NCBI GenBank assembly: GCA_001803235.1
Contig: MHBL01000202.1
Span: forward strand, 1 to 24,021
Length of the DNA stretch: 24,021 nucleotides
Direction: 5' to 3'
DNA from: Lentisphaerae bacterium RIFOXYA12_64_32
GTDB taxonomy: Bacteria; Verrucomicrobiota; Lentisphaeria; Oligosphaerales; YB12-FULL-65-16
A program made the position numbers and the translations under genes. The stretch's first letter is position 1. Each line of letters begins with the position of its first letter. The notes under the pieces are model-generated. The model had not been told where the DNA came from. It was given only the letters and a program-made list of their open reading frames with translations, and ran no database searches. Below, piece after piece: positions 2,286 through 18,746 of this stretch.

Positions 2286-2332
2286 GCGAGCGCTTCGTGG
2301 TATTCGTGAGGCTATGAACCTGAGGTGTTTCC

Positions 2333-3661: not shown

Positions 3662-3787
3662 GCACGGCCCGGGACGTTCTACACGGGGGCGGGGGCTGTC
3701 CTCCCGGAAGCCGCGGTGCGCGGCACGAGCGAACTGCTGCCGCAGTCGCCGGAGGGCAATCCGATCCCCTCCATTCTGTCGCGCCGG

Positions 3788-4088
3788 ATGCGGACGCTGT
3801 CGTTCTGGGCCAAGGAGTTGGCTGATCCGGCCTGCCGTGCGCGGTGGGAGCGTTTGGCGCGCGGTGCGGAGTCGGCAATGGGTGACACTCGGGTGGAGCT
3901 GCTCGCGGCCAGTGCGCCGACGGCTGCCGGCGTGGCGCGCAGCGCCTGCCCGGACGTAATGCTGGTTCATGCCGGCGAACTGGATGGCCTGGTGAACGCC
4001 GGGTTGCTCCTGCCGCTCGGGCCGAATGATCCCATGTCCTGGTTCAATCCGGACGACGACTTTCGCGTCGCGCGGAACGCTGCAGTCC
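3788..4088 (+). pseudogene. Truncated remnant of a family-1 extracellular solute-binding protein (sugar ABC SBP paralog). It has no signal peptide and ends at a repeat element.
   Basis: The translation MRTLSFWAKE...DVMLVHAGELDGLVNAGLLLPLGP aligns with TLTFWHIM...DVFFTWGGGGLAELAAADRVVDLTP in the intact SBP at 16313..17614. Only about the first 100-130 residues are present and the upstream part is not signal-like. The reading frame then runs straight into REP-like copy A. Confidence 0.45.
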
Positions 4089-4162
4089 CGGCCGAGGGCC
4101 CTCGGGCCGGGACGGCCCCGAGGCGCTCTACTGCGGTCCCGGAGGTCCCGCGCCACTGTCGT
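4089..4162 (+). repeat. REP/MITE-like interspersed element, copy A (partial: 3' half only)
   Basis: CCGGCCGAGG..CTCGGGCCGGGACGGCCCCGAG..CTGCGGTCCCGGAGGTCCCGCGCCACTGTCGT matches the 3' half of the copy at 13803..13950 and the reverse complement of 17629..17743. It contains the conserved internal hairpin CTCGGGCC-GGGAC-GGCCCCGAG. Confidence 0.6.
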
Positions 4163-4178
4163 TCTCCGCTGCGTCGCC

Positions 4179-7100
4179 TTATGGCGCCTTTGCGGTGTCC
4201 GCAAGGCTGAGCGTCCCGGCGTTGTCCAGGTTCCAGGTCGGGCCGCTGGTGCCGACCCAGTTGATCCACTGGCCGTCCTCGGTCCGGAACACGCCGAGGT
4301 TGAACGGCAGCGCGGTGCCCGGCTTCGGCTCGATCCCGAGGGCCGTGAGCGGCAAGCGCCACTCCGCCTCCCAGCCGGCGCCGCCGACCGTGGCCTTGAA
4401 CCCGATGTCCTTCCCGAGGGCCTGGGCCGTGTCCGCCGGCGTGCCGGCCTCGGTGCTGACCTCGAACTGGCCCCCGGCAAACCCGTGGACAACCCACGTC
4501 GTCGGCTTGCCGTCGGCGAGTTTGCCGCGCAGGCAGACCTCGGCGCCGTCGTCCTGGCCCCACGTTTGACCGCGCGTCGGCGGTGTCGCGGCGCCGAACG
4601 GGACGGCAAGGTGCACGTACAGGGCCTGCGCGTCCCAGGCGACGTGCGCGGCGCACGGCGTGCCGGCGAGCGGTCCGCCGTCCGGGGTCTGGGCCAGGCG
4701 CAGCGGTTCGCCGGGCCATTCGCCGGCTGCCGCCGTACCGTCAAGTGTCGGGGCGGCGGCCGTGCGCAACGCCTGGGCCGTCGGCTTGGCGCGGTTGCTC
4801 CGGTCGCCTTTGAACGCGAGGCGCCCGCCCCGAGTCAGATCCCACGTCTCGCCCAGCGTGCCGGCCCACTGGATGTACTGCGCGTCTTCACTGCGAAAGA
4901 CGGTCAGATTGCAGGGCAGCAGGTCCTGCTGGCCCGGGTCGAACCGCAGCGCGGCGAGCGGTACGGCCCACTCGCAACGCCAGATCGTCTTCTCGACCCC
5001 GGCCGCGCACGTGACCGCCTTGGCCAGCGCGGCGGCCTCGTCTTCGGTCGCACCGCCGAGCGTCAGGCTCTTGAATGTGCCGTCCGCGAACCCGCGCAGG
5101 ACGTAGGTCACGGCGGTCCCGTCACCGCGCCGCCCTTCGAGCGCCAGTTCCGCGCCTTCGTCCTGCCCCCAGGTTGCGCCAAGCTTGCGCGCCTCAGGGA
5201 ACATGCTCACCACTGCCGCTGTGACGAACAGGGCCTGCCCGTCGGTGCACGCCCTGGCCGTGAGCGGCGCGCCGCGTGCGCGACGCTGGTCCGGGTTCTG
5301 GCCGAGGTCCAGGCCGTCTGCCGGCCACTCGTCCGTGTCCATGCGTCCGTCGATGCGCGGCGGCTTCTCGACCCGCGTCACGTTGCGTCGGACCGGAGTC
5401 TGGCGCAGTTTTCGTTCCGCCTCCGGCAAGGCGTCGGCCAGTTCCGGCTCGACGCCCGGCCGCACGATCAGGTTGTCCTTCCACTCGACCACGGCGTCCG
5501 GATCGTTGACCGTGAACTTGCCGCCGACGTGGAACGTGTTGCCGAGCACGTGGTAGTTCGCGCTGCGCGGCACGGAGAGAACCATGTCGTCCGCGGCGAT
5601 GAACAGGTTGTTGCGCAGCGTGCAGTTCAGCGTCATGTGGTTCTGGGTCGGCATTTTCACGTTGATCGACACGTTCCCCTCGACCATGCAGTCGCGGCAT
5701 TTCTCGTCCAGGTAGTAGGAAGACAAGCCGTAGCCTTTGCCGTGCTCTTGGATGTCGCGTACCACGTTGCGGCGAATGATCGTGCGGACTGCGTCACCCA
5801 TGTAGATGGCTGCGCCGTCGTGCAGTTGCTGCATGCAGCGGTAGATCAGGTTTTCCTCAATCACCACGTCCGTGCCGCCGAAGCACATCCCGGAGTACGG
5901 CGTGTCGTGGAGAACGTTTCGGCGCACCACGGCTTTTTCGCCGCCGCCCATCAGGCCGATGGCGCTGGCGCAGAGCAAGCCGATGTCGTGAATGCGGTTG
6001 CCCTCGACGCGCAGCTTGGGGCCGCTCACACGCATGCCGCCGCCGCCGAGGTGGTGCAGGTGACAGTCGACCACGGCGCAGTCGTCCTGGAGCCCGCCGG
6101 CTTGGATGGCGTACGCACCGGCGTTGGCGATCTCGAGTTCCGCCAGGCGCAGGCCGCGCCCGCTCGACGCCGAGATCAGCCCCGGCCAGGCGCAGCCGCC
6201 GAACCCCGCCGAGGTGAGCGGCGCATCCGTGGTGGAGAGGGTCATGCGGCGCAGCGTGAGGTTGACGACCGGTTTCTTCGCGTCGCCTTTGATCCGGAAC
6301 AGGACCTGCAAGCGTGGCGCGACAGCGAAAGCCTTAGTCATGTCCTCGTCGGGGCGCGGTCTGTAGACGACGCGCCCCGCGTCGCGGTCCAAGTACCACT
6401 GACCGGGCTGCGTCATGCCTTCGCGCACGTTCCAGACGGCGTACCGCTGCACGCCGAACCCGCCCGGGGGATGCCCGCACGGACTGGCCAGGGTCAGGGT
6501 CCGCGTCGCCACGTCGTGCGCGGCTACACCCACGGTCGACTCGTCCCACATGTGGTAGACGGTCACCTCGGCGTTCTTCACGCTCAGCCACTCGCCCAGG
6601 TCGCCCTGGCGATACTGGAGCGTGGTCAGTTCTTGTGGTGTGGGTTTGCGCTCCCAGCCGCCGCCGGCCGTGCTCATCCAGCGGACGGGGAATTTGGTCT
6701 CGTGCTCGAAGTGCCCCTCGGCCGGCAACCGCGCCCGGGGTCGGACCGCGTCGTCGATCACGAGCAGGCGGAAGAGCCAGTCCTTGCCGTTGTCCTTCGG
6801 GAGTGCGGCGGCCCAGAACTTCTCGCCGTCGCGCTGCCAGCCTTCGACGCGTCGCCCGCCGTAGACCGTCGTCTTGCCGGGGCCAGCGCCCTCGAGAGTC
6901 AGGTCCTGGTCGCGGGGGTCCAGTTCGATCGTGGCATCGACGAAGTGGCGCCCGGGCAGGAGCATGATGGTGCGGGGTGCGGCCGCCTGCCTGCGGCTCG
7001 CTTCGACCGCCGCCGCGATCGTCGCGAACGGCCCGTCCGTCTTGTCGGCAGCGATCTCCGCGACTCGGCCCGACCACGCGTCACGTCCGTCCGGCGAGAC

Positions 7101-7196
7101 ATACCACGTCATGGGTTTCTCCTCACACCAGGCTGCCGTTGCCGTGAGCAGGCCAGCCGCCCAAATACCGCGCGTCCACCACGTTCTTCCCGTCAT
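4179..7196 (-). CDS. Secreted right-handed parallel beta-helix protein (DUF1565/pectate-lyase-superfamily-like N-terminus) with two tandem C-terminal CBM9/DOMON-like domains; candidate polysaccharide lyase/hydrolase
   Basis: 1005-aa ORF with ATG at 7196 and a strong AGGAGGG Shine-Dalgarno 8 nt upstream. The N-terminus is signal-peptide-like (WAAGLLTATAA). It is followed by WYVSPDGRDAWSGR...GPFATI, typical of beta-helix proteins, and by repetitive G/N-rich beta-helix rungs. The C-terminal ~330 aa is an obvious internal duplication (WPADGLDLGQ...ATWGQDEGAELAL...FRSEDAQYIQWAGTLGETWDL versus WPGEPLRLAQ...QTWGQDDGAEVCL...FRTEDGQWINWVGTSGPTWNL). Confidence 0.8.
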   Translation of the reverse strand: MTGRTWWTRGIWAAGLLTATAAWCEEKPMTWYVSPDGRDAWSGRVAEIAADKTDGPFATIAAAVEASRRQAAAPRTIMLLPGRHFVDATIELDPRDQDLTLEGAGPGKTTVYGGRRVEGWQRDGEKFWAAALPKDNGKDWLFRLLVIDDAVRPRARLPAEGHFEHETKFPVRWMSTAGGGWERKPTPQELTTLQYRQGDLGEWLSVKNAEVTVYHMWDESTVGVAAHDVATRTLTLASPCGHPPGGFGVQRYAVWNVREGMTQPGQWYLDRDAGRVVYRPRPDEDMTKAFAVAPRLQVLFRIKGDAKKPVVNLTLRRMTLSTTDAPLTSAGFGGCAWPGLISASSGRGLRLAELEIANAGAYAIQAGGLQDDCAVVDCHLHHLGGGGMRVSGPKLRVEGNRIHDIGLLCASAIGLMGGGEKAVVRRNVLHDTPYSGMCFGGTDVVIEENLIYRCMQQLHDGAAIYMGDAVRTIIRRNVVRDIQEHGKGYGLSSYYLDEKCRDCMVEGNVSINVKMPTQNHMTLNCTLRNNLFIAADDMVLSVPRSANYHVLGNTFHVGGKFTVNDPDAVVEWKDNLIVRPGVEPELADALPEAERKLRQTPVRRNVTRVEKPPRIDGRMDTDEWPADGLDLGQNPDQRRARGAPLTARACTDGQALFVTAAVVSMFPEARKLGATWGQDEGAELALEGRRGDGTAVTYVLRGFADGTFKSLTLGGATEDEAAALAKAVTCAAGVEKTIWRCEWAVPLAALRFDPGQQDLLPCNLTVFRSEDAQYIQWAGTLGETWDLTRGGRLAFKGDRSNRAKPTAQALRTAAAPTLDGTAAAGEWPGEPLRLAQTPDGGPLAGTPCAAHVAWDAQALYVHLAVPFGAATPPTRGQTWGQDDGAEVCLRGKLADGKPTTWVVHGFAGGQFEVSTEAGTPADTAQALGKDIGFKATVGGAGWEAEWRLPLTALGIEPKPGTALPFNLGVFRTEDGQWINWVGTSGPTWNLDNAGTLSLADTAKAP

Positions 7197-7220
7197 CCGT
7201 TACGCCCTCCTGATGTTGCG

Positions 7221-7270
7221 GCCATCGACGGCAACCGACTGCAATCGACCGCGATCGACGGCAATCGAAT
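7221..7270 (+). repeat. Five tandem copies of a 10-bp unit (GCCATCGACG / GCAACCGACT / GCAATCGACC / GCGATCGACG / GCAATCGAAT)
   Basis: Read directly from the sequence. It fills most of the 80-bp spacer between the transglutaminase-like gene stop and the beta-helix gene start. On the minus strand it lies about 10 to 60 nt upstream of the AGGAGGG Shine-Dalgarno. Confidence 0.8.
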
Positions 7271-7276
7271 ACCCCA

Positions 7277-8770
7277 TCACGGGTCCAGGACCTGCATGTC
7301 GTCCAGGGTCAGGCTGTCGACCAGTTCGAGCACGGGCAGGCACAGGTCAGCCACTGGCGAGGCGGTCGCCAGTGCGCTCTTGGTCAGGGCGATGTGCGTC
7401 GCGTCGAACCGGCCCAGCGCCGGGTCGACCGGCAGCCACACGTCGGGTGCCACGAGCAGTTCGGCCCAGACGTGAAACACGAACGCGCCGGTCTCGTGTC
7501 GTTCCCCGAAGGTGACGTTGCTCATGTACGCCAGGCCGACCACGAGCCGCGACGGAATGCCCAGGGCGCGGGCCAGCGCGGCGACCAGCACGCTGTGCTC
7601 GGAGCAGTCGCCGCGCAGGGCGCGGGCCGTCTCCAGGGCGCTGGCAAACCCCATGTCGAGGGTCTTGGAGACAATCTTGCCGCGCACGTAGCTCTCGAGC
7701 CGCCGCGCCAGCGCGACCGAGTTGCGCTCCTCGCCCGCGGCCTCACGCGCCATGTCCTGGAGCAAAGGCTGGTCTGCCTCGAGGAACGGTGTGGGCCGGA
7801 GGTAATCGGCCAGGCCGGCGCCGTTCCGGAAGGGGACGGCGTAGCCCGCGACCCACGAGTCGGGCGGCGGCGTACTCACCGTCACGTCGGCCTGGCCCGC
7901 CGCAATAGCCGTCACCTGCTGCAGGGCATCGGCACAGAGCCGCGCCTCCGCGCCCGGGGTGCAGCGGAGGCGGTAGCGGGCTCGCCGGACGGCCCGCGGC
8001 GCCGGAATGCGCGCCGGCGCGGCAACCATCGCGGACGTCATCAACTCGACAGCGGTAGACGGAAGCAACGCCTCTTCCTTGGAGCAGCGCAAGATGCGCA
8101 CCGGCCCCAGCAGCGGGATCTCGATGCGGGTGAGCAGTGCCCGGCCCTGTTCGTCGAGCCACTGCAGGTCCGGGTGCAGCGGGCGGATTTCCGTCGTCTG
8201 CGTCAGACGCTGCAAGGAGCGGGTTTCCGCGGCCAGTTCGACGTCCTCGACGGAACCGAATTCGATCCGAGTGACCACACCGCGGGCGAGCTCGGGCGCA
8301 AACACCAGTTCGGAAAAGCTGTGACCGGCTCCGCGAGCGCGCTCGGCCACAATGCGTCGCAGCATGGCTCGGGGGCCGCGCGCCGCGGCCGGGAGTGGAA
8401 CTTCACTATCGTAGCCGGCACTGTGCAGACGCAGCCGCTCGCCGTCTGCCGTGCCTTCCACCGCCGCCGACGTCTTGAGTTGGCCGCCCGAGAACGAATC
8501 GAGCCGATACTGGTAATGCCGAACCAGCCCGGCAGTGTCTTCACCGACCCGAACGTGTTCGTGGAACTCAACCAACTCGCCGCCGCGCTTGAAGCCCAAC
8601 ACGGTCTCCCACTCGCTGGCAAAGTGCCCGTCCGGGCCAGGCACCGTGTCGAAGCGTTGGTGCATGTGCCCAATCTTCTCGGTCCCGAACCAGATCGATC
8701 CCCAGAATTCCGATAACGGTTCCATATCCATCTCTGCGGCAGATATTAACCGACTGCACAGGAGCAGCAT
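7277..8770 (-). CDS. Transglutaminase-like superfamily protein (Cys-His-Asp core) with a large N-terminal domain of unknown function
   Basis: The C-terminal region has GDCSEHSVLVAALARALGIPSRLVVG, then FVFHVWAE and PVDP, matching the transglutaminase-like Cys/His/Asp core. The ORF is open to a GTG at 8950, but the first 60 codons are Arg/Cys-rich junk. I chose the ATG giving MLLLCSRLISAAEMDMEP (about 8770), which has a hydrophobic N-terminus. ATGs at about 8728 and 8722 are alternatives. No strong Shine-Dalgarno precedes any of them. Confidence 0.7.
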   Translation of the reverse strand: MLLLCSRLISAAEMDMEPLSEFWGSIWFGTEKIGHMHQRFDTVPGPDGHFASEWETVLGFKRGGELVEFHEHVRVGEDTAGLVRHYQYRLDSFSGGQLKTSAAVEGTADGERLRLHSAGYDSEVPLPAAARGPRAMLRRIVAERARGAGHSFSELVFAPELARGVVTRIEFGSVEDVELAAETRSLQRLTQTTEIRPLHPDLQWLDEQGRALLTRIEIPLLGPVRILRCSKEEALLPSTAVELMTSAMVAAPARIPAPRAVRRARYRLRCTPGAEARLCADALQQVTAIAAGQADVTVSTPPPDSWVAGYAVPFRNGAGLADYLRPTPFLEADQPLLQDMAREAAGEERNSVALARRLESYVRGKIVSKTLDMGFASALETARALRGDCSEHSVLVAALARALGIPSRLVVGLAYMSNVTFGERHETGAFVFHVWAELLVAPDVWLPVDPALGRFDATHIALTKSALATASPVADLCLPVLELVDSLTLDDMQVLDP

Positions 8771-8981
8771 TATGACGGCAGCGCTTCGTCGCGAGAGCCT
8801 GCCGACGCCCGAGTCGTTCCGTTGTGCTCTTCCTGTCTGCACGAGTGCTGCCGCGGTGTGTGCCATGTGCGGACTCCGCACCCACCGGCCACGCCTACAG
8901 CACGGAGGCCTTCTGTTCCGCTGAGGTTTAAGGTTACATAGGCGCGGCACAATTACAAGACCGGCGGGGTCGGCGAGGGTA

Positions 8982-9222
8982 ATGCGTCAGCACGTCCCGG
9001 CCGGTGGACCGGCCGATCATAGGCTGACGTTACTCGCACCGGTTCGCGCCGCCGCGGGTCTTGCGCCCGCGGGGCGACGATTGGGAAAAAGAGAGGGGCG
9101 TCCGTCGCCTCCCCCCTTCCCAATCGTCGCCCCACGGGCGCAAGACCCGCGGCGGCGCGGACGGACGCGAGTAACATCCACACATGACCGGGCCGTCTGC
9201 GGCCCGGGCACGCTGACGCAAT
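8982..9222 (+). repeat. Long palindromic element E1: a 104-bp outer arm, a ~33-bp loop that is itself a hairpin, and a diverged inner arm
   Basis: Outer arm 8982..9085 (ATGCGTCAGCACGTCCCGGCCGGTGGACCGGCCGATCATAGGCTGACGTTACTCGC...GGGGCGACGATTGGG) pairs with inner arm 9119..~9222 (CCCAATCGTCGCCCCACGGGCGCAAGACCCGCGGCGGCG...GCGAGTAAC). The core 39 bp pair with 1 mismatch; the distal parts are weaker. ORFs translated across it on both strands give mirror-image peptides ([13 protein letters not shown]), so they are artefacts. Confidence 0.75.
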
Positions 9223-9245
9223 ACTGGCACGGGGCGGTGCATCTT

Positions 9246-9275
9246 TTGGCATTCCGCGCGCGTTCCGTGTATCTT
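9246..9275 (+). promoter_or_regulatory. Candidate sigma70-like promoter TTGGCA-N18-TATCTT, about 45 nt upstream of the DUF1559 gene
   Basis: Consensus match by eye only. It lies between element E1 and the AGGAG Shine-Dalgarno of the gene at 9321. Confidence 0.2.
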
Positions 9276-9320
9276 ACGAACAGACACCGGATTTGTCAAC
9301 CCCCCGTGCCAGGAGACGAT

Positions 9321-10040
9321 ATGATGCGCACTTCGCACGATCGCCGATTCACCCTGATCGAACTTCTCGTCGTCATTGCCATCATCGCGATCCTGGCGTC
9401 GCTGCTGTTGCCGGCGCTGGCCATGGCCAAGGAGAAGGCGCGCAAGGAGGTGTGCGCCGGGAACATCAAGCAGGTAACGAGCGCCAGCTTCATGTATATC
9501 GACGACAATGACGGCTGGTGGCTCGAAAGCCCGCCGGTGCGCGCTGACGATCCCGCCGTTGGGTGGCGGCCGGATCTGGCGCGCGTCGCGCCGCAGGCCC
9601 TGATCCTGCCGTACCTCGGGAACTTCGAGGTCTGGGTCTGCCCGTCCCGGATCGACCGGCGGCCATGGACTTCGGGCGGGCACCCGATGTGGGGTGCTGA
9701 CGCGTACCCGGACGAGTTTGCCGGCAAGTGCCTGTCGTACGGGCCCGGCATGAAGGGGCCCAGCAACACGGGCGTCCCCACGGGCTACAAGGTCGACCCC
9801 GAACTGCGGCGGCGAAAACACGCTTCGAACGAGGAACTGATGTGGGGCGATATGCCGTACCCTAACTTCCTGCTCCCTGACCACTGCCTGGCCTACCCGA
9901 AGCTGCTGCATCCGAATGCCTGCAACTGGGCCACGATGCAGTCGGATTCGTTCACGGCCCACATCAACGGCAGCAACGTGAGTTACTTCGATGGCCACTG
10001 CTACTTCATGAACGCAGCGCAGATCATCGCTAAGTACTGA
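9321..10040 (+). CDS. DUF1559 family protein with a prepilin-type N-terminal cleavage/methylation domain and a C-terminal H-X9-DG motif
   Basis: ATG at 9321 has an AGGAG Shine-Dalgarno 5 nt upstream. The N-terminus [33 protein letters not shown] is a classic type-IV-pilin-like leader. The C-terminus [12 protein letters not shown] is an exact H-X9-DG. The 113 codons upstream in the same ORF (from 8982) lie inside palindromic element E1 and are rejected. Confidence 0.85.
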
Positions 10041-10189
10041 ACGGGCACGCAGCAAACCGGCGGCGCTGAGGCAGTACTGTGATGCGTCAGTCGCGGGTGC
10101 GCGTTTGTCCGAGCCGCGCGTGTCAGCAAGCGGCCTCCCAGAGACCGCTCCCTCATCCCGCCCGTCGGGCGGGACGGCTCGGCTGGATG

Positions 10190-10418
10190 CCTGTTGCGGT
10201 ACGTCCTGCACCCGTGACTCCCATGTTACTCGCGCGCCATCCTGCGCCGCCGCCCGGCTGGTCCGGGCGGGGCGACGATTGGGGGAAGAGGGGCGGGCGT
10301 CCGCGCCCTCTTCCCCCAATCGTCGCCCCGCGGGCGCAAGACCCGCGGCGGCGCGAACCGGTGCGAGTAACGTCAACCTATGATCGGCCGGTCCACCGGC
10401 CGGGACGTGCTGACGCAT
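10190..10418 (-). repeat. Long palindromic element E2, inverted relative to E1
   Basis: Outer arm 10315..10418 is the reverse complement of E1 outer arm 8982..9085 with 1 mismatch in 104 (GTCAACC versus GTCAGCC). The inner arm at about 10223..10290 (ATGTTACTCGCGCGCC...GGGGCGACGATTGGGGG) is diverged. The loop GGGGAAGAGGGGCGGGCGTCCGCGCCCTCTTCCCCC is itself a hairpin. Confidence 0.75.
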
Positions 10419-10441
10419 CATGCAGTACTTCCGCCCTGCAC

Positions 10442-10470
10442 TTGCGCTTGCCGGGGGAACAGGATACAAT
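10442..10470 (+). promoter_or_regulatory. Candidate promoter TTGCGC-N17-TACAAT, about 95 nt upstream of the 10566 gene
   Basis: TACAAT at 10465..10470 matches the -10 consensus well. The -35 is weak. Match by eye only. Confidence 0.25.
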
Positions 10471-10565
10471 AGAACCAAGCGGAAAAGGGGTCGGTCGTCT
10501 CGGGAAGGCCGGCATGTGCGTCCCTGTCCGTGTGTCCAGGCCGACGGCACGGGAGGTGCCAGTAT

Positions 10566-11213
10566 ATGGCCCACAACCCCGTATTGGACCGCGTGGCGGA
10601 CAAGATGAAGCAGGCGCTGCGCGACCAGGCCAAGGCGTCTGTCGAGGCGCTGGCGGGCAAAGCCAAGCAGGCGGTGGCCGAAGCGGTTCCGGCCCCGGCT
10701 CAGCCGTCTCCGTCGCGGTTCGCCGCCGGACCGGCTTTTCGCAGCACCATTCCCTGCTCCGCCGCGGCAAAGGACCGGGCGCTGGTGATTCTGTGCAGCA
10801 GCGGCACGTTTCAGCGGCAGTGCCACGAGTTCCTGACCGCCGGGCTGCGTCTCGATGACTACGATTTGGTGGCCGTGCCGGGCGGCGTGCAGTGGCTGGC
10901 ATTGCCGGACATTCTGCCGAAGCACCACAAGGTCGCGCGCTGGATGACCGAGTACCTGCTGCGCAAGCACAGCGTGCGCCGCGTCATCTGTATTGCACAC
11001 CAGAACTGCTCGGCGTACGAGGACCAGAGCACGCTCGGTACCCTGGCGCACATGGTCACGGGCAAGAGCACGTTCGAGCACCAGCTCGAGCAGTTGCGGC
11101 ATGTGGGCAACGACCTGACGTCCCTGTTCGGCGTCGGAGTCGAGCTGTACTATGCCGCGGTGGAGAACGGGGACGTCGTGTTCCATTCCGTGCCAACGGA
11201 AAAGGGAGTGTAG
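10566..11213 (+). CDS. Hypothetical cytoplasmic protein with an N-terminal amphipathic helix, a Pro-rich linker and a ~150-aa domain that resembles a beta-carbonic-anhydrase zinc site but lacks the catalytic Asp/Arg dyad
   Basis: ATG at 10566 has GGGAGGTG 9 nt upstream; the ORF's upstream ATG at 10530 has no Shine-Dalgarno. LVILCSSGTF...DYDLVAVPGG...RRVICIAHQNCSAY aligns, from memory, with beta-CA blocks LFISCSDSRL...DLFVIRNAGN...IVICGHSNCGAM. Cys, His-x-x-Cys and Asn are retained, while the CxDxR Asp and Arg are replaced by Ser and Thr. Confidence 0.65.
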   Translation: MAHNPVLDRVADKMKQALRDQAKASVEALAGKAKQAVAEAVPAPAQPSPSRFAAGPAFRSTIPCSAAAKDRALVILCSSGTFQRQCHEFLTAGLRLDDYDLVAVPGGVQWLALPDILPKHHKVARWMTEYLLRKHSVRRVICIAHQNCSAYEDQSTLGTLAHMVTGKSTFEHQLEQLRHVGNDLTSLFGVGVELYYAAVENGDVVFHSVPTEKGV

Positions 11214-11364
11214 CGGGCGCCGAGCCGACCGGACGATGTCGAGCGCCGCTGCCGCGGTGGCGAAAATCGGCGTGCAGTGAGTCTGGTTGCTTGGGAACGG
11301 GTGGCGACCGTCGCACTCGGTGGTGCGCCTTAAGGCAGGCAAGGCTCGATTCAGGAGAAACAGC

Positions 11365-11889
11365 ATGGCCGGATACGTATTTCTGGGGTTGTTCGTGTTC
11401 TCGGTCGTGTTCTCGATCGGCGCGTTCCTGTTCGGGCACGATTCGGATCATGACGTCGGCAGCGACCACGGCGGCGGCGATATCGGGGGAATGCCGAGTA
11501 TTTTCAGCAGCCGCGTCATTTCGCTGTTCCTGCTCGGGTTCAGCGGCATGGGGCTGATCGCGCACTACTCCTGGCATCTGACCGCCGGCGGGGCGACGCT
11601 GTGCGGGTTGGGGGCGGGGATCGTGCTCGGTGCCCTGGCCTACGGAATGTGCGCCATGTTTTTCTGCGAGCAGGCCAGTTCGCTCCCGAGTTCGGCGGAC
11701 TATGCGGGGCTGGAGGGGCGTGTCTGCACGAACATCCCGGAAAAGGGAACGGGCGAAATCAGCGTGACCGTCAAGGAACAGCGCCGCACCATTTTTGCCG
11801 TCTCGGCGGACGGCAGTGCCATACACGAGGGGCAGCCGGTGAAGATCGTCAGCGCTTCCGGCGGCACGGCTACGGTGACCCGAGTCTGA
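11365..11889 (+). CDS. NfeD-like membrane protein (short form, YuaF-like): N-terminal transmembrane helices plus C-terminal OB-fold
   Basis: ATG at 11365 has an AGGAG Shine-Dalgarno 7 nt upstream. Hydrophobic segments are YVFLGLFVFSVVFSIGAFLFG and ISLFLLGFSGMGLIAHY. The C-terminal beta-rich region is EISVTVKEQRRTIFAVSADGSAIHEGQPVKIV. The gene sits immediately upstream of a flotillin gene, the conserved NfeD-SPFH pairing. Confidence 0.8.
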   Translation: MAGYVFLGLFVFSVVFSIGAFLFGHDSDHDVGSDHGGGDIGGMPSIFSSRVISLFLLGFSGMGLIAHYSWHLTAGGATLCGLGAGIVLGALAYGMCAMFFCEQASSLPSSADYAGLEGRVCTNIPEKGTGEISVTVKEQRRTIFAVSADGSAIHEGQPVKIVSASGGTATVTRV

Positions 11890-11959
11890 CGCGGAGCAGT
11901 GGGCGGGTGGAGGACGACTCCATGGCCCGTCGTGGATGAATTGTGAGGAGGAACTGAGC

Positions 11960-13696
11960 ATGCCGAACGTCATTGCCGGTGGAGTTGTCATTGTTGTGTC
12001 GTTGGTTTTGGCGCTGGTGGTTCTGGGTGCGCTGTGGGCCATGGCCAAGCGCTACAAGAAGGTGCCGCCCAACGAGGTCATGGTCGTGTACGGCCGCAAG
12101 CGGCGTACGTCGGATGGCAAGGTGGTCGGTTACCGCGTCATCACCGGTGGCGCGGCGTTCATCTGGCCGCTGTTCGAGGAATACCGCCTGATCTCGCTGA
12201 ACCTGATACAGATCCCGCTGAAGATCGAGAACACGCCGAACATCGATGGCGTGCTGATCACCGTCGAGGCGGTGGGCAACGTGAAGATCTCCAGCGACCC
12301 GGAGTTGCTGGGCGCGGCGATCGAGCGTTTCCTCGGCTACGACACCAATGAGATCGAGCGGCAGATTCACGATATCCTCGAAGGCCAGATGCGTCAGATC
12401 ATCGGCACGCTGCAGGTCGAAGAGATCGTGCAGAAGCGTGAGAAGATCACGGAGCAGGTGACCCAGAACGCGACCATGGACCTGTCCAAGATCGGTATCC
12501 GCTGCGACCTGATCGTGGTCAACCGCATTTCGGACAACCTGGGCTACATCGAGGCCCTGGGCAAGAAGCGCACCGCCGAGGTTATCCGCGACGCGAGCAT
12601 CGGCGAGGCCGAGGCGCAGCGCGATGCCACGATCAAGGCGTCGAACGCCATCCGTGAAGGGGAACAGACGCGCCTGGACAACGAGGCGCAGATCGCCGCC
12701 GCACAACGTGACCTGGACATGAAGAAGGCTCAGTACCATGCCTTGGTAGCTGAGCAACAGGCGACCGCCGCACAGGCTGGCCCGAAGGCCAACGCCATGG
12801 CCATGCAGGAGGTCAAGAAGCAGGAAGTGAAGGTGCAGGAGATCGAGACCGAGGCGCGCATCGCGGTGTCGATCAAGGAAGCGGAGCGCAAGCAGAAGGA
12901 ACTGATTGCCACGCAGATTCGACCGGCCGAGGCGCAGAAGGACGCGATCGTGCTGGTGGCGGAAGGCGAAGCGAACGCCGCGGTGGTGCGGGCCGAGGCC
13001 GAAGCCAAGGCGGCGCGGATCCAGGCGGAAGGTCAGCGGGCGGCGCAGATTGCCCTGGCTGAAGCGGAACGGGTCCGGCTGTCTGCCGAAGGCGAAGGTC
13101 AGGCGAACGCCGACCGTGCCAAGCGCCAGGCGGCGGGCGAAGGTGAAGCGCTGGCGGTCAAGGCGCGCGGTGAGGCCGAAGGCGCGGCCATCCGGGCGCG
13201 CGGCGAAGCTGAAGGTGCGTCCATCCGTGCGAAAGGCTTGGCGGAAGGCGAAGCCATCCAGGCCAAACTGGTGGCTGAGGCTGAAGGTATCCTGAAAAAG
13301 GCCGAAGCGTACAAGGCCATGGACCGTGCCGCCATGGTGCAGATGATCCTGGAAAAGGCACCCATGCTGATCCAGGAACTCGGTGCGGCGCTGAATCAGG
13401 CCCTGACCCCGGTTGGCGAACTGGGCAAGGGCATCGGCACCGGCCTGGGCAACATCGACAAGGTCAACATCATTGACATGGGCGGGAGCGGCGGCAGCAA
13501 GGATGGGCAGGGTGCCGTGACGCGTTACGCCATGACCGTTCCGGAAGTGCTCTTCGGGATCCTCGCCAAGATGAAGACGGTCGGTATCGACGTCGATGCA
13601 CTGCTGAAGAAGACAGGGATCGATCCGGCCAAGATGAACGACCTGATCGGCATGCCGCCGGCAGCGCCGGCAGCGAAGAAAGCCGACGAGGCCTGA
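11960..13696 (+). CDS. Flotillin-like SPFH/band-7 domain protein (FloT/YuaG-like) with a long Ala/Glu-rich coiled-coil repeat region
   Basis: ATG at 11960 has a GAGGAGG Shine-Dalgarno 8 nt upstream. An N-terminal transmembrane/hairpin segment is followed by an SPFH core (VVYGRKRR...ITVEAVGNVKI...) and by EA repeats (AEGEANAAVVRAEAEAKAARIQAEGQRAAQIALAEAER...). The nucleotide-level periodicity here is coding. Confidence 0.9.
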   Translation: MPNVIAGGVVIVVSLVLALVVLGALWAMAKRYKKVPPNEVMVVYGRKRRTSDGKVVGYRVITGGAAFIWPLFEEYRLISLNLIQIPLKIENTPNIDGVLITVEAVGNVKISSDPELLGAAIERFLGYDTNEIERQIHDILEGQMRQIIGTLQVEEIVQKREKITEQVTQNATMDLSKIGIRCDLIVVNRISDNLGYIEALGKKRTAEVIRDASIGEAEAQRDATIKASNAIREGEQTRLDNEAQIAAAQRDLDMKKAQYHALVAEQQATAAQAGPKANAMAMQEVKKQEVKVQEIETEARIAVSIKEAERKQKELIATQIRPAEAQKDAIVLVAEGEANAAVVRAEAEAKAARIQAEGQRAAQIALAEAERVRLSAEGEGQANADRAKRQAAGEGEALAVKARGEAEGAAIRARGEAEGASIRAKGLAEGEAIQAKLVAEAEGILKKAEAYKAMDRAAMVQMILEKAPMLIQELGAALNQALTPVGELGKGIGTGLGNIDKVNIIDMGGSGGSKDGQGAVTRYAMTVPEVLFGILAKMKTVGIDVDALLKKTGIDPAKMNDLIGMPPAAPAAKKADEA

Positions 13697-13802
13697 TCGG
13701 GACCGCGGCGTTGGGTCGCGCTTCCCCCCCCGGCGGCCGAGAGCTGTCTCAGGCGAAGTTGCTGTTTCCGCCCGCCGGCACTGGGACGCGACTGATCGCG
13801 CA

Positions 13803-13950
13803 GTGGCTCGGCGCGTCCCGCGCCGAAGCGGGGTGCGCCGGCCGGCTCTGTCCGGCGAAGCTGCTCGCGCGAAGACGGATCTCCGGCCGAGGTGCTCGGG
13901 CCGGGACGGCCCCGAGCACCCTGCTGCGGTCCCGGAGGTCCCGCGCCACT
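13803..13950 (+). repeat. REP/MITE-like interspersed element, copy B (full length, 148 bp)
   Basis: GTGGCTCGGCGCGTCCCGCGCCGAAGCGGGGTGC ... CCGGCCGAGGTGCTCGGGCCGGGACGGCCCCGAGCACCCTGCTGCGGTCCCGGAGGTCCCGCGCCACT. Both conserved end-blocks are shared with the inverted copy at 17629..17743. The 3' half is shared with 4089..4162. It lies about 105 nt downstream of the flotillin stop. Confidence 0.7.
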
Positions 13951-14211
13951 CCCCGCCGCTGCGCACAACCGCGAGCAGATGTATATCCTGGCGCCCATCG
14001 CGCAGCTTTCTCTATCTGTAGATTCTCGCGTACAGCCCGAAAAAAAACGCGCGCGGTCATGGAACCCCCGGCAATTGCCGGGGTCTTACACTGCAGGACG
14101 AGATGAAGGAACCCGGTGAAACCGACCGTGACCAAGCCCTCGGCAAAACGAAGTCGAGGATAAGATAAGAGGAGTCAGAACCAGCAACCAGCTCAGCAAT
14201 GTAAGTCCCTT

Positions 14212-14263: not shown

Positions 14264-14346
14264 TTCCTTTTCCGGAACTCAACTCTTGGCTTCCGTTTGC
14301 CACCTGTGCAGGGTTGTCGGCGCTTGTTTCTGACGCCACGATGTGC

Positions 14347-14487
14347 GGGACGGGTGTCGGGTGTCGAGGGGGGGAGCGTCCTTGAACACTGAACACTCTC
14401 CGAGCGTGGTCTTCGTACCATCCACACTGCCCTTTCGCGGCAGGTCCAGCCTGATAGGCGTGCCCCTCGACACCCGACACTCGTCCC
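14347..14487. repeat. 25-bp inverted repeat pair (1 mismatch; core 18 bp perfect GTGTCGGGTGTCGAGGGG) flanking 91 bp; MITE-like or structured-RNA-like element
   Basis: Left arm 14347..14371, right arm 14463..14487. There is no obvious target-site duplication. The interior contains GAACACTGAACAC. Confidence 0.5.
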
Positions 14488-14511
14488 CTTCTTCCGCCAT
14501 GCCCCGCGCCC

Positions 14512-14681
14512 AATGCTTGTCAGGGCTGTTTCAAGATCTGGCGCCGTGTCTCGGAAGGCCACGCCTCCGCGCACACCAAGTAGGGGCGGCCTGTCCTCAG
14601 GCCGTCCCCCCCCGGCGTGGGGACACGCCGGGGGGACCGCACGCGACAGTCACGAATCTTGAAACAGCCCTGAATGCTTGT
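14512..14681. mobile_element. Miniature inverted-repeat transposable element: 152-bp body (14521..14672) with 17-bp perfect terminal inverted repeats (CAGGGCTGTTTCAAGAT) and a 9-bp target-site duplication AATGCTTGT
   Basis: TSD at 14512..14520 and 14673..14681. TIR at 14521..14537 and 14656..14672. The interior has a 14-bp-stem GC hairpin (GTCCCCCCCGGCGTG / CACGCCGGGGGGAC). No coding capacity. It sits about 140 bp upstream of the dapF start. Confidence 0.65.
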
Positions 14682-14813
14682 CAGGAGACCTTGATTTCCG
14701 GTGCATTTCTGGGTATCTTGATCTCATTGACCGGGTGGTTCCCGGGCAACGCCACGATTCCCGCTGTGGTCTGGGACTGCCGGACGTGGGGCCGGCCCGA
14801 TGCGCTGGAGGGC

Positions 14814-15710
14814 ATGCCTGTGAGCGTGGAGTTCAGCAAATACCACGGACTCGGGAACGACTACCTGGTCTTCGATCCGCAGACCGCTGCGCTAGCACTG
14901 TCCACCGAACGGATACGCTTGCTTTGCGACCGGCATTACGGTCTCGGTTCGGATGGCATCCTGCTGGGCCCCCTTGCTGCGCACACCGTGGTCCCGGTGG
15001 CGGCACGCGAGCCGGCGGCGGCAGCCAGCGAGACACCCTCGTTCGGCCTGCGCGTCTACAATCCTGACGGCTCGGAAGCGGAGAAGAGCGGCAACGGTTT
15101 GCGGATTTTCGCGCGCTACCTGTGGGACACGGGCCGGGTCGCCGAGGTGCCGTTCGACGTCCTGACCCTCGGCGGTCGGGTCCGGTGCCAGGTCCTTGAA
15201 CAGGGCAAACAGGTCAACGTGGACATGGGGCGGGTGAGCTTCTTCAGCGGTGACATCCCCGTGGCCGGCCCAGCGCGCGAGGTCCTCAAGGAGAGCATTA
15301 CGGTCGCGGATCGCACCCTGACCTACTGTGCCGCCAGCATTGGGAACCCTCACTGCGTCGTTCTGTGCCACCAGGCGTCGGTGGACGACGCTCTCGAACT
15401 GGGACCGCAGTTGGAGACGGACCCGCGATTTCCGCAACGGACGAATGTCCAGTTCATGCAGGTTCTGGACCGAAACAACATTGCGATCGAGATCTGGGAA
15501 CGTGGCGCGGGCTACACATTGGCCTCGGGCAGCAGCGCCGCGGTCTCGGCGGCCGTGGCCAAGCGCCTGGGGTTGTGCGATGCGGACATCGCGGTCCGCA
15601 TGCCCGGCGGCACCTTGGGAGTTCATGTCGATGACCGATTCCAGGTCACGATCATTGGGCCGGTTGCAGCCGTGGCCCGGGGCACGGTGGCACCGGAACT
15701 GATTCAGTAG
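14814..15710 (+). CDS. dapF: Diaminopimelate epimerase
   Basis: FSKYHGLGNDYLVFD near the N-terminus matches the DapF signature (FxKMHGLGNDF). The ORF is open from 14343, but the upstream part overlaps the repeat elements and is rejected. GGAGGG at 14806..14811 favours the in-frame GTG at 14820 (8-nt spacing) over the ATG at 14814 (2-nt spacing). Confidence 0.85.
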   Translation: MPVSVEFSKYHGLGNDYLVFDPQTAALALSTERIRLLCDRHYGLGSDGILLGPLAAHTVVPVAAREPAAAASETPSFGLRVYNPDGSEAEKSGNGLRIFARYLWDTGRVAEVPFDVLTLGGRVRCQVLEQGKQVNVDMGRVSFFSGDIPVAGPAREVLKESITVADRTLTYCAASIGNPHCVVLCHQASVDDALELGPQLETDPRFPQRTNVQFMQVLDRNNIAIEIWERGAGYTLASGSSAAVSAAVAKRLGLCDADIAVRMPGGTLGVHVDDRFQVTIIGPVAAVARGTVAPELIQ

Positions 15711-16312: not shown

Positions 16313-17614
16313 ATGATGCCCACAAAACGCTGGCTTGCCGCGCTCGCTGCGGCCATGGTCTGCGGCGGTTGCGGCAAGCCTGCGGCCCCGCCTGACGCCG
16401 CACCGAAGCCCGCCGCAACGACGACTCTGACCTTCTGGCACATCATGAACTACGCCGGCCCGCGTGAGGTCATCGCGGCGGCCGTGCGGCGTTTTGAACA
16501 GGCGAATCCGGACGTCGGCGTCCGGGTTGAAACGTTCGAGAACGACGCCTACAAAACCAAGCTCGCGGTGGAGATGGCCGGCGGCACACCGCCGGATGTG
16601 TTCTTCACTTGGGGAGGGGGCGGCCTGGCCGAACTAGCCGCTGCCGACCGCGTGGTCGACCTCACCCCGGCGCTCGAGGAGGGCGGGTGGCGCGACCGGG
16701 TCCTGCCCGCCGCGCTGCGCTTGTGCACGGTGAACGACCGGGCCTACGCGGTGCCGCTGGACCTGTCCTGCGTGGTGCTGTGGTACAACACGGAGCTGTT
16801 CGCGCGCCACAACTTGACCCCGCCGGCCACGCTCGACGAACTCGTCGCAGCTTGCGCGCGGCTCAAGGAGCAGCGCGTCACGCCGTTCGCGCTCGGCAAC
16901 ATGCAGCAGTGGCCGGGCGCGTTCTACTTCGTCTATACCGCCCTGCGCGAAGGCGGCACTGCAGTGTTCTTCGACGCCGCCGCGCGCCAGCCCGGAATCG
17001 GTTTCGAGGCGCCCGCGTTCGTCGAGGCCGGGCGGCGCCTGCAGCAGTTCGCCCAAGCCGGTTTCTTTCCCACCGGCTGCAACGGTATCGATGACGGGCA
17101 GGCCCGAACCCAGTTCCTGTCCGGCAAGGCAGCCATGTACCTGATGGGCACCTGGCTGGTGGCGCGGATCAAGACCGAGACCCCGGACTTCCTCGCGAAA
17201 CTGGACTGCCTGCCGTTCCCGGCTGCTCCCAACGGTAAGGGCGACCCTACGACCGTGGTTGGCGGCGTCAACTGCGCGTTTGCGGTTTCTTCCGGCTGCC
17301 GCACCCCGGACAAAGCCATCGCGTTGCTGCGTTTTCTGACGGACGAGGAGACGGTCAAGGGATGGTGCGATGCCGGCCGAATTCCGGCGCTGCGCGCGGA
17401 CGAGCAGACCCTGGCGCCCCTGCCGGCGCCCACGCGCAAGGCCCTGGATTACCTCACCGCCAGTCCGGTCCTGCAGCCGTATTACGACCAGTTCCTGCCG
17501 CCGCGCCTGGCCGAAATGCACAAGAAGACCACCCAGGAACTGCTCGCCGGCACACTGACGCCCGAGCAGGCGGCGAAACGGATGGAAGACTGTGCCCGTG
17601 AAGACGGGAAGTAG
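16313..17614 (+). CDS. ABC transporter substrate-binding protein (extracellular solute-binding protein family 1, carbohydrate type), lipoprotein-like signal peptide
   Basis: 433-aa ORF with a double ATG at 16313. The N-terminus is WLAALAAAMVCGGCGKP. It has typical sugar-SBP blocks (TLTFWHIM, PDVFFTWGGGG, MYLMGTWL). It is followed by two permease genes. Confidence 0.85.
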   Translation: MMPTKRWLAALAAAMVCGGCGKPAAPPDAAPKPAATTTLTFWHIMNYAGPREVIAAAVRRFEQANPDVGVRVETFENDAYKTKLAVEMAGGTPPDVFFTWGGGGLAELAAADRVVDLTPALEEGGWRDRVLPAALRLCTVNDRAYAVPLDLSCVVLWYNTELFARHNLTPPATLDELVAACARLKEQRVTPFALGNMQQWPGAFYFVYTALREGGTAVFFDAAARQPGIGFEAPAFVEAGRRLQQFAQAGFFPTGCNGIDDGQARTQFLSGKAAMYLMGTWLVARIKTETPDFLAKLDCLPFPAAPNGKGDPTTVVGGVNCAFAVSSGCRTPDKAIALLRFLTDEETVKGWCDAGRIPALRADEQTLAPLPAPTRKALDYLTASPVLQPYYDQFLPPRLAEMHKKTTQELLAGTLTPEQAAKRMEDCAREDGK

Positions 17615-17628
17615 CCGGGCGGGACGAC

Positions 17629-17743
17629 AGTGGCGCGGGACCTCTGGGACCGCGGCAGGGTGCGCGGGGCCGTCCCGGCCCGAGGTCCTCGGCCGGGGAC
17701 CGGCCCGAGCACCCCGCTTCGGCGCAGGGACGCGCCGAGCCAC
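17629..17743 (-). repeat. REP/MITE-like interspersed element, copy C (inverted orientation, 115 bp)
   Basis: The reverse complement reads GTGGCTCGGCGCGTCCCTGCGCCGAAGCGGGGTGC...CCGGCCGAGGACCTCGGGCCGGGACGGCCCCGCGCACCCTGCCGCGGTCCCAGAGGTCCCGCGCCACTGTCGT. It starts 15 nt after the SBP stop codon. Confidence 0.7.
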
Positions 17744-17819
17744 CGCACGCTCGGTCCGGAAGGCAAGGGGTAGGCACTGGCATTTGTGAGCCTTTTATGA
17801 GGCAAAGTCGGAGATGTAA

Positions 17820-18746
17820 GTGCCAATTGCCGATGACAAACGCCAAGGCCTGACCCCGTATGCGCCGTGGCTGTTCATGCTGCCGGCGCTGGCGGTGTAT
17901 GCCGTGTTCGTGCTTTGGCCGATTGCCGATTCGTTCTGGCTGAGCCTTTACCACTGGCGCAGTTCGTCCGCGCCGCCCGAGTTTGTCGGATGGCGCAACT
18001 TTCAGATGCTGTTCCACGATCCGGTGTTCTGGTCGGCGCTGTTGCACAATGTGGCGCTGCTGGTGCTGTCGCTGCTGACTCAGCTCCCGGTGGCTTTGGG
18101 CTTGGCGATCCTGCTCAGCTATCCGACCCGCGCGCGTGGCCTTTTCCGTACCGCCTTCTTCGCGCCCATGGTGATGCCGTCTGTGGCCATTGCCGTGCTC
18201 TGGGGCTTCGTCTACTTGCCGGAGCAAGGCATCCTGGACCAGGTGCTCCGCGTGTTCGAGCGTGACTTCGCGCACGGTTGGCTCTCGGCGCCCGACACGG
18301 CCCTGGCCTGCGTATTCCTCGCCATCTGCTGGCGCTACACCGGGTTCTATCTCGTTCTGTTCATGGCTGGGCTCGCGGCGATTCCAGAACCGCTCTACGA
18401 AGCGGCACGGCTCGACGGTGCCAGCGAGTGGCAGGTGTGCCGGCGGATCACGCTGCCGTTGCTGCGGCCGGTCATCGGCGTGGCGGCAACGCTGTCCATC
18501 GTCGGATCGCTGAAGTACTTCGACCTGGTGTACATGATGGCGGCCGGCGCGCCGGAAAACTCACGCGAAGTGGTGGCGACCTACATCTACCGCCTCGCGT
18601 TCGCCAGCGGTCAGGGCCGGTACGGGTACGGCTCTGCCGCCGCCGTGGTGTTGCTGGGCGTGGCCCTGACCGTGGCCGGGACGCTGCATTTCCTGGGCCG
18701 CCGCAACGCCGCCGAACCCAACCACGGTGCTGCGGGCGGAGCGTGA
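17820..18746 (+). CDS. ABC transporter permease (MalF/UgpA-like, carbohydrate uptake)
   Basis: GTG at 17820 has a GGAG Shine-Dalgarno 6 nt upstream. It has multiple transmembrane segments and the EAA-type loop EAARLDGASEWQVCRRITLPLLRP. Confidence 0.85.
   Translation: MPIADDKRQGLTPYAPWLFMLPALAVYAVFVLWPIADSFWLSLYHWRSSSAPPEFVGWRNFQMLFHDPVFWSALLHNVALLVLSLLTQLPVALGLAILLSYPTRARGLFRTAFFAPMVMPSVAIAVLWGFVYLPEQGILDQVLRVFERDFAHGWLSAPDTALACVFLAICWRYTGFYLVLFMAGLAAIPEPLYEAARLDGASEWQVCRRITLPLLRPVIGVAATLSIVGSLKYFDLVYMMAAGAPENSREVVATYIYRLAFASGQGRYGYGSAAAVVLLGVALTVAGTLHFLGRRNAAEPNHGAAGGA

Follow-up and report, generated by a model that had tools for sequence, protein, structure and literature searches.

What bacterial flotillins do, and which proteins they recruit, is still debated, and to our knowledge the partners that share their operons amount essentially to NfeD. 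In the general nfeD-flotillin operon, as in yuaF(nfeD2)-floT-yuaI of Bacillus subtilis, an NfeD-like gene lies immediately upstream of the gene for a long flotillin with EA repeats (PMC2636767, PMC11222466), and yuaI has been reported from B. subtilis only (PMC2636767). In methicillin-resistant Staphylococcus aureus (MRSA), the OB domain of NfeD binds the flotillin coiled coil (PMC11222466). Here we describe a locus with the same nfeD-flotillin arrangement in a 24,021-nucleotide stretch of Lentisphaerae bacterium RIFOXYA12_64_32 (contig MHBL01000202.1), which we refer to as the window. The third gene, which in B. subtilis is yuaI, presumably an acetyltransferase gene, is here located upstream of nfeD and encodes a protein with a β-carbonic anhydrase (β-CA) fold, designated X.

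Among described proteins, X resembles the Cab-type minimal β-CAs, such as Cab of M. thermoautotrophicum (1g5c) and CafC of A. fumigatus (6jqc), with which it shares 10–17% identity. The Cab-type proteins carry an Asp/Arg dyad where X has Ser/Thr and an RNxGN motif after strand β2 where X has PGGVQW; X has an extra 56-residue N-terminal helix-plus-linker and does not match the β-CA family PF00484 (Pro_CA) of Pfam. Most members of a second family, PF20393 (Pro_CA_2), are cores of 136–165 residues with an intact C-x-D-x-R motif, unlike X. The LCIB family and the C-terminal domain of carboxysomal CsoSCA are degenerate β-CA folds; the CsoSCA domain has lost the metal ligands themselves, whereas X keeps its ligands and lacks the dyad alone. 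DabA, of the DAB inorganic-carbon pump, is much larger than X, still has the catalytic Asp, and its partner is a cation-translocating subunit, not an SPFH scaffold. It is a β-CA-like zinc protein that depends on a membrane partner for its function (PMC13144422) and offers a precedent for membrane-coupled β-CA-like subunits.

X has a predicted β-CA fold with metal-ligand residues but no Asp/Arg dyad

Gene X is an intact open reading frame (ORF) that runs from an ATG at 10566 to a TAG at 11211–11213 and encodes 215 residues. A deposited protein of Lentisphaerae bacterium RIFOXYB12_FULL_65_16, annotated as hypothetical, has the identical sequence. Among 5.8 billion clustered proteins, we found 16 homologues with 40–56% identity over the alignment (44–62% in local BLASTP). 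An alignment of the close-homologue clade (A1, 16 sequences) contains 27 invariant columns, including Cys77, Pro105-Gly-Gly107, Gln109, Trp110, Asp115, Pro118-Lys-His120, His145, Cys148 and His172-Gln173, which indicates that the gene is real and under purifying selection.

The relationship to β-CAs emerged at the level of the family. The sole Pfam match of X was to PF20393 ('Putative carbonic anhydrase'; E = 8.4e-5, 23.2 bits), under the 30-bit gathering cutoff. PF00484, the profile that an earlier reading of the window from its sequence only had proposed as a check, gave no match in a Pfam scan even at E ≤ 10. Searches of PDB sequences with X alone and with the 16-sequence clade profile likewise returned nothing relevant. 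When 1.84 billion representatives were searched exhaustively with a profile, 782 related clusters emerged, only 7 of them at E ≤ 1e-30. A family profile made from 145 of these clusters (A2) reached yeast Nce103 (3eyx; E = 2.7e-5), and all 17 PDB matches at E < 1 were β-CAs. In total, 119 of the 145 A2 members matched Pro_CA_2 at E < 0.01 and 26 matched Pro_CA, weakly; the close homologues P0006 and P0014 carry a precomputed PF20393 match. The most fitting description of X is a divergent branch of Pro_CA_2 or a sister to it.

Comparison by hhalign with Escherichia coli CynT and Can (sequences from NC_000913.3) gave a probability of 94.5% (E = 8.3e-8) for A2 against CynT, 87.7% for A2 against Can and 86% for A1 against CynT. 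Judged by these profile comparisons, the alignment of the X family to the E. coli β-CAs is far beyond chance. All three paired the zinc ligands and dyad positions identically: Cys77 with Cys42, Ser79 with Asp44, Thr81 with Arg46, His145 with His98 and Cys148 with Cys101. The sequence-only reading had matched three blocks of X to β-CAs, LVILCSSGTF (residues 73–82), DLVAVPGGVQ (101–110) and RVICIAHQNCSAY (139–151), and had proposed both the three ligands and the Ser and Thr replacements in CxDxR. All three blocks are present in X as it gave them, and the ligands and replacements fall where it put them. Its block-for-block alignment was reproduced at the two outer blocks; in the middle block the A2 alignments and the A1–CynT alignment differ in register, so only the outer two are secure.

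Structure prediction also pointed to a β-CA fold. An AlphaFold2 model of X built on A1 had a mean predicted local distance difference test (pLDDT) score of 88.5, and the top 50 Foldseek hits were all β-CAs (probability 1.0). The predicted α/β core has strands at residues 72–77, 100–104, 139–145, 191–200 and 203–209, preceded by a conserved (P)xFRSxxP arm that begins at about residue 56 in A1. X thus combines two marks of the β-CA superfamily, a modelled parallel sheet that can be superposed on solved β-CAs and a Cys...His-x-x-Cys pattern aligned to equivalent positions. Of the marks of a competent β-CA, it has neither the Asp–Arg dyad nor a significant match to PF00484.

We counted residues in 164 representatives of the family. 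The first Cys was present in 160 of 160 aligned relatives, the His in 162 of 163 and the second Cys in 163 of 163. The Asp position was Asp in 130 of 164 (Ser in 18) and the Arg position Arg in 129 of 164, so that about 80% of the relatives retain C-x-D-x-R. Within the X clade, for which we used 20 sequences in the dyad counts, the triad of Cys77, His145 and Cys148 is invariant. The full dyad is found in three members (P0006, CSDAR; P0016 and L010, CGDSR), Asp alone in two, Arg alone in two and neither in 13 (CSS.. or CNS..); homologues with the same loss as X, which the sequence-only reading had suggested looking for, thus exist. In A1, position 79 is S, D or G, whereas position 81 shows 10 residue types in 16 sequences and is among the most variable columns. 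Asn147, which the sequence-only reading had listed beside the zinc ligands, is present but is not a conserved feature: clade members have D, G, N or H there, and 112 of the 164 relatives have Asp.

Loss of the dyad extends beyond X and its clade to several branches of a family that is otherwise mostly C-x-D-x-R. Because three of the 20 clade members keep the full dyad, its loss in the X clade looks recent. In a neighbour-joining tree, built without support values, most members that retain the dyad branch close to the clade's base, with P0006 falling instead among those that lack it, and the dyad was lost independently in L022DN (CSSEK), in P0027, in P0043 and in an entire group of paralogues encoded upstream of NfeD (CDExx). 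The ancestor was therefore probably a complete C-x-D-x-R protein, and in these alignments the dyad appears to have been shed repeatedly in the family and the metal triad never. The clade's most conserved stretch follows strand β2, and its PGG (residues 105–107) is near-invariant across the whole family. From the topology of the fold, this loop should border the metal site. Three further cysteines of X, Cys64, Cys86 and Cys142, are not conserved in A1.

The N-terminal amphipathic helix and Pro-rich extension noted from the sequence were also borne out, with a long helix in the model and a Pro-rich stretch at residues 42–56. The maximum hydrophobic moment of the helix is 0.66, compared with 0.37 ± 0.10 in shuffled sequences (p ~0.005). 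Its mean hydrophobicity is negative, suggesting a helix of the polar amphipathic or coiled-coil type, not a membrane anchor. Paralogues encoded upstream of NfeD in four-gene cassettes (Xup, described below) have an N-terminal transmembrane helix in its place, and other family members have EA-rich N-terminal helices with weak matches to the ATP-synthase-b, V-ATPase-G, FliH and DivIVA profiles. Pfam scans of the longer family members found no useful domain fusions; a molybdopterin-oxidoreductase fusion in one member is probably a merged gene call. A putative N-terminal tether, either a helix or a transmembrane anchor, is thus a recurring theme in the family.

Gene order with NfeD and flotillin is conserved

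X lies directly upstream of an NfeD-like gene, itself directly upstream of a flotillin gene (Table 1), as the sequence-only reading had described. The flotillin matches Band_7 (E = 1.1e-23, 84.7 bits, cutoff 23.6) and has the SPFH-plus-coiled-coil architecture, with an EA-rich region visible in the translation. Its score against the NCBIfam FloT model (252.6 bits, E = 8.7e-75) is under the equivalog cutoff of 700. The NfeD-like protein has a hydrophobic N-terminal half, judged from sequence, followed by a C-terminal OB-like domain. It matches Pfam NfeD at E = 3.1e-4 (21.3 bits, under the 29.1 cutoff) and, through the C-terminal domain, a single PDB entry, that of YuaF (2k14; E = 0.16). Homologues of this protein in other loci give weak NfeD_TM matches, and 10 other loci have an orthologue with 52–66% identity at the corresponding place.

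We retrieved loci by similarity to X, which over-samples the X branch. Of 13 distinct loci with close homologues, 11 have the order X-NfeD-flotillin (the window, L001/L009, L004, L005, L006, L008/L015, L010, L014, L016, L017 and L018). The linkage to nfeD-flotillin, which the sequence-only reading had proposed to check, is recurrent. The remaining neighbours are unrelated between these loci, which come from Lentisphaerae and Planctomycetota metagenome-assembled genomes (MAGs) and from metagenomes. Two of the loci, the only true ones found in a scan of genome contigs, are in Planctomycetota MAGs; that scan identified no cultured host. In five loci X and NfeD are separated by 2–17 nucleotides or overlap by 4, which indicates co-transcription. 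In the window, the gap between the two genes (11214–11364) would be smaller if translation of the NfeD-like gene began at an alternative TTG at 11287. Compared with the window by tblastn (L001, L004–L006, L008, L010, L014 and L018), flotillin is 76–88% identical, NfeD 52–66% and X 46–61%. Flotillin is thus far better conserved than either neighbour, even between Lentisphaerae and Planctomycetota MAGs.

Adjacency to flotillin extends to relatives only 22–33% identical to X (L019–L023, L035–L038, L042 and L043). Some of these loci have the order NfeD-flotillin-X' (L021, L022 and L042), X' being the relative of X, and others flotillin-X' (L020 and L043). In L043 the X' is a 153-residue, core-only CSDYR protein whose gene begins 12 nucleotides after a flotillin C terminus. 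In L023 (2401–5363), the gene for a flotillin (Band_7 and Flot) precedes that for a PspA/IM30 protein (E = 1e-37), after which comes one for a Pro_CA_2-like protein with CFDAR; the family is thereby connected with a further membrane-stress protein. Five loci (L019, L035, L036, L037 and L038; for example, L035 2966–6573) contain a four-gene cassette, Xup-NfeD-flotillin-Xdown, in which Xup combines its transmembrane helix with a degenerate CDExx motif and Xdown has an intact CSD(P/H)R...HEDCG. We considered whether X is the positional orthologue of Xup and rejected this, as X groups with the clade encoded downstream of flotillin in the tree without support values. In total, a family member adjoins flotillin in at least 21 distinct loci, at about 22–60% identity to X and in three gene orders. 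The small Pro_CA_2 proteins of L026 and L032, 136 residues long, show no flotillin linkage; what this linkage marks is therefore one branch of the family, not the whole. The two outcomes set beforehand as refuting the sequence-only reading, no β-CA relationship and homologues never found beside SPFH or NfeD genes, did not occur.

Table 1 Features of gene X, its product and the surrounding window
Feature	Position	Strand	Basis
Shine–Dalgarno-like GGAGG, 9 nucleotides 5' of the gene X ATG	10552–10556	+	Direct sequence reading
Gene X, β-CA-fold protein of 215 residues, divergent Pro_CA_2-like family member	10566–11213	+
X N-terminal extension, residues 5–40: one long polar amphipathic helix (predicted)	10578–10685	+	AlphaFold2, pLDDT 77–89
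X Pro/Ala-rich linker, residues 41–56	10686–10733	+	Sequence; predicted coil; poorly conserved in A1
X β-CA-like α/β core, residues 57–209, starting with the (P)xFRSxxP arm	10734–11192	+	AlphaFold2; family-profile match range
Cys77-Ser78-Ser79-Gly80-Thr81: Cys77, first zinc-ligand equivalent; Ser79 and Thr81 at the Asp and Arg of C-x-D-x-R	10794–10808	+	hhalign
PGGVQWLALPDILPKH, residues 105–120: most conserved stretch of the clade, after strand β2	10878–10925	+	Invariant or near-invariant columns of A1
His145-Gln146-Asn147-Cys148 (H-x-x-C): second and third zinc-ligand equivalents	10998–11009	+	hhalign
NfeD-like (YuaF/NfeD2-type) membrane protein, 174 residues	11365–11889	+	Pfam NfeD C-terminal domain; YuaF match; locus position
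Flotillin-type SPFH protein, 586 residues	11936–13696	+	Pfam Band_7; NCBIfam FloT
Transglutaminase-like protein	7277–8950	-
Diaminopimelate epimerase	14343–15710	+
ABC sugar-type binding protein and permease	16313–18746	+
Ser/Thr protein kinase, 1,031 residues	20186–23281	-

Candidate roles of X at the flotillin scaffold

We lean, without great confidence, towards X being an accessory subunit that binds zinc, belongs to the scaffold of NfeD and flotillin and has a weakened or lost capacity for CO2 hydration. X would be a cytoplasmic, Cab-like minimal β-CA-fold protein of the flotillin-associated Pro_CA_2 branch. Because the Cys-His-Cys triad is kept, it most likely still binds zinc, and because Ser79 and Thr81 replace the water-activating Asp and the Arg that positions it, CO2 hydration is probably strongly weakened or lost. 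The zinc-bound water of β-CAs is activated by the Asp, which forms a hydrogen bond to it, and enzymes mutated in the Asp or Arg are severely impaired in activity (PMC2918522, citing Smith et al. 2002). X would be co-transcribed with the membrane scaffold and cooperate with it as a third, accessory subunit. The amphipathic helix and Pro-rich linker would hold the zinc domain at the scaffold, a task that the transmembrane anchor would take over in the sister cassettes, and the still-invariant loop near the metal site would serve in binding or regulation, not in bulk catalysis.

Several observations weigh against this proposal. The close homologues in L007 and L013 have no NfeD or flotillin gene in the flanks examined, and in the window X and the NfeD-like gene are 151 nucleotides apart, with uninformative promoter and terminator calls. 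The PGGVQWLALPD loop after β2, predicted to lie beside the metal site, is invariant in the clade, and at least three further lineages (L022DN, P0027 and P0043) replaced Asp by Ser on their own. Together these two findings argue that the site is still in use; it looks like a site under selection, not one in simple decay, and another catalytic or ligand-binding activity is possible. Cab variants in the Asp or Arg are also said to retain measurable activity, so that a non-hydrating X is not guaranteed.

The same observations could mean that X is still an enzyme, which we regard as unlikely, if well worth considering. It would hydrate CO2 more slowly, or act on another small substrate at the flotillin microdomain, as do the carbonyl sulfide (COS) and CS2 hydrolases of the same fold. 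Catalysis would fall to a zinc site with Ser79 and the clade-invariant Gln109, Trp110, Asp115, Lys119, His120, His172 and Gln173. Beyond the invariant loop, several polar residues are specific to the clade, and the Asp-to-Ser change is recurrent in four lineages. The ancestral partner was probably catalytic, given that C-x-D-x-R...H-x-x-C is complete in most of the relatives linked to flotillin. However, the high variability of position 81, the Arg equivalent, argues against retained catalysis, as does the finding of no new invariant residue at or beside the dyad positions, and the COS and CS2 hydrolases retain the Asp/Arg dyad.

Less probable again is that X acts as a zinc-thiolate redox or metal switch, in which oxidants or zinc limitation would release the metal from the Cys2His site, alter conformation or oligomeric state and signal stress to flotillin-NfeD. 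The site is indeed retained without the catalytic dyad, and there are links to stress: floA and nfeD mutants of MRSA are sensitive to H2O2, with both genes mattering under oxidative stress (PMC11222466), the L023 relative adjoins flotillin and PspA, and plant β-CAs are reported to be under thiol-redox regulation (PMC7463553). This evidence is purely circumstantial. X has no extra conserved cysteines, as the three outside the triad vary, and in dyad-intact relatives the same triad is simply the catalytic metal site.

We consider it highly improbable that X is an unrelated housekeeping β-CA-like protein beside NfeD-flotillin by chance, a reading for which the unlinked homologues in L007 and L013 and the small proteins of L026 and L032 could be cited, given the recurrence of flotillin adjacency at loci whose other neighbours all differ and the gene overlaps and short spacings that indicate co-transcription.

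A broader and more tentative extension of the accessory-subunit proposal is that in several bacterial phyla a β-CA-fold protein serves the flotillin-NfeD scaffold as its dedicated partner. β-CAs are obligate dimers, and Xup and Xdown could therefore form a heterodimer of an anchored pseudo-enzyme and an enzyme. Xdown is presumably active, and the heterodimer would place CO2, HCO3- and proton chemistry at the membrane microdomain. The single copy in the window would then be a non-catalytic zinc subunit that regulates the scaffold, or is recruited by it, through the N-terminal helix.

Surroundings, annotation and significance

The remaining genes of the window with recognizable products (transglutaminase-like, epimerase, ABC and kinase) are not related to CO2 or bicarbonate transport or to carboxylation, and the large ORFs at 40–2376, 2312–4744 and 4026–7475 have no Pfam match. 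An ORF at 8982–10040 (+) has a prepilin-type N-terminal methylation motif and a weak DUF1559 match, typical of bacteria of the Planctomycetes–Verrucomicrobia–Chlamydiae group; translation probably begins close to the MMRTSH methionines and not at 8982. Large GC-rich palindromic repeats lie on either side of this gene (8982–9208 and 10233–10418). Their 40-nucleotide core occurs three times in the window (9046–9085 -, 9119–9158 + and 10315–10354 +), with 0 expected by chance, and the arm at 8982–9085 is 99% complementary to 10315–10418. The region 10225–10425 has a folding energy of -147 kcal/mol (z -10.4). The repeat, about 150 nucleotides upstream of gene X, looks like an element related to repetitive extragenic palindromes (REP) or miniature inverted-repeat transposable elements (MITE).

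Two minus-strand ORFs that overlap X, NfeD and flotillin (9030–11366, 778 residues; 11870–13966, 698 residues) were rejected as high-GC shadow ORFs. Such antisense ORFs carry a risk of miscalls by gene callers: L007 has a minus-strand call of 698 residues, with no Pfam match, downstream of its X homologue. Annotation pipelines leave X and its clade as 'hypothetical', and no NCBIfam model matches X; a name that records the β-CA-like fold and the flotillin association could be given.

The β-CA fold and a Pfam family are already known for the wider group, X being under the family threshold and unannotated. In the literature searched, we found nothing on PF20393/Pro_CA_2, including no experimental work on the family, and no carbonic-anhydrase-like protein tied to NfeD-flotillin operons; a survey of SPFH operons mentions no β-CA-like partner (PMC2636767). 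The flotillin link of this β-CA-like family thus appears undescribed in that literature.

The family forms a natural series from metalloenzyme to pseudo-enzyme in which the metal site is kept, running from the full dyad to its complete absence by way of members with just the Asp or just the Arg, and including paired anchored and soluble paralogues. A third conserved, soluble flotillin partner with a recognizable enzyme fold provides a concrete handle on flotillin function, namely on whether flotillin assemblies organize local CO2, bicarbonate and pH chemistry or are regulated through a zinc protein.

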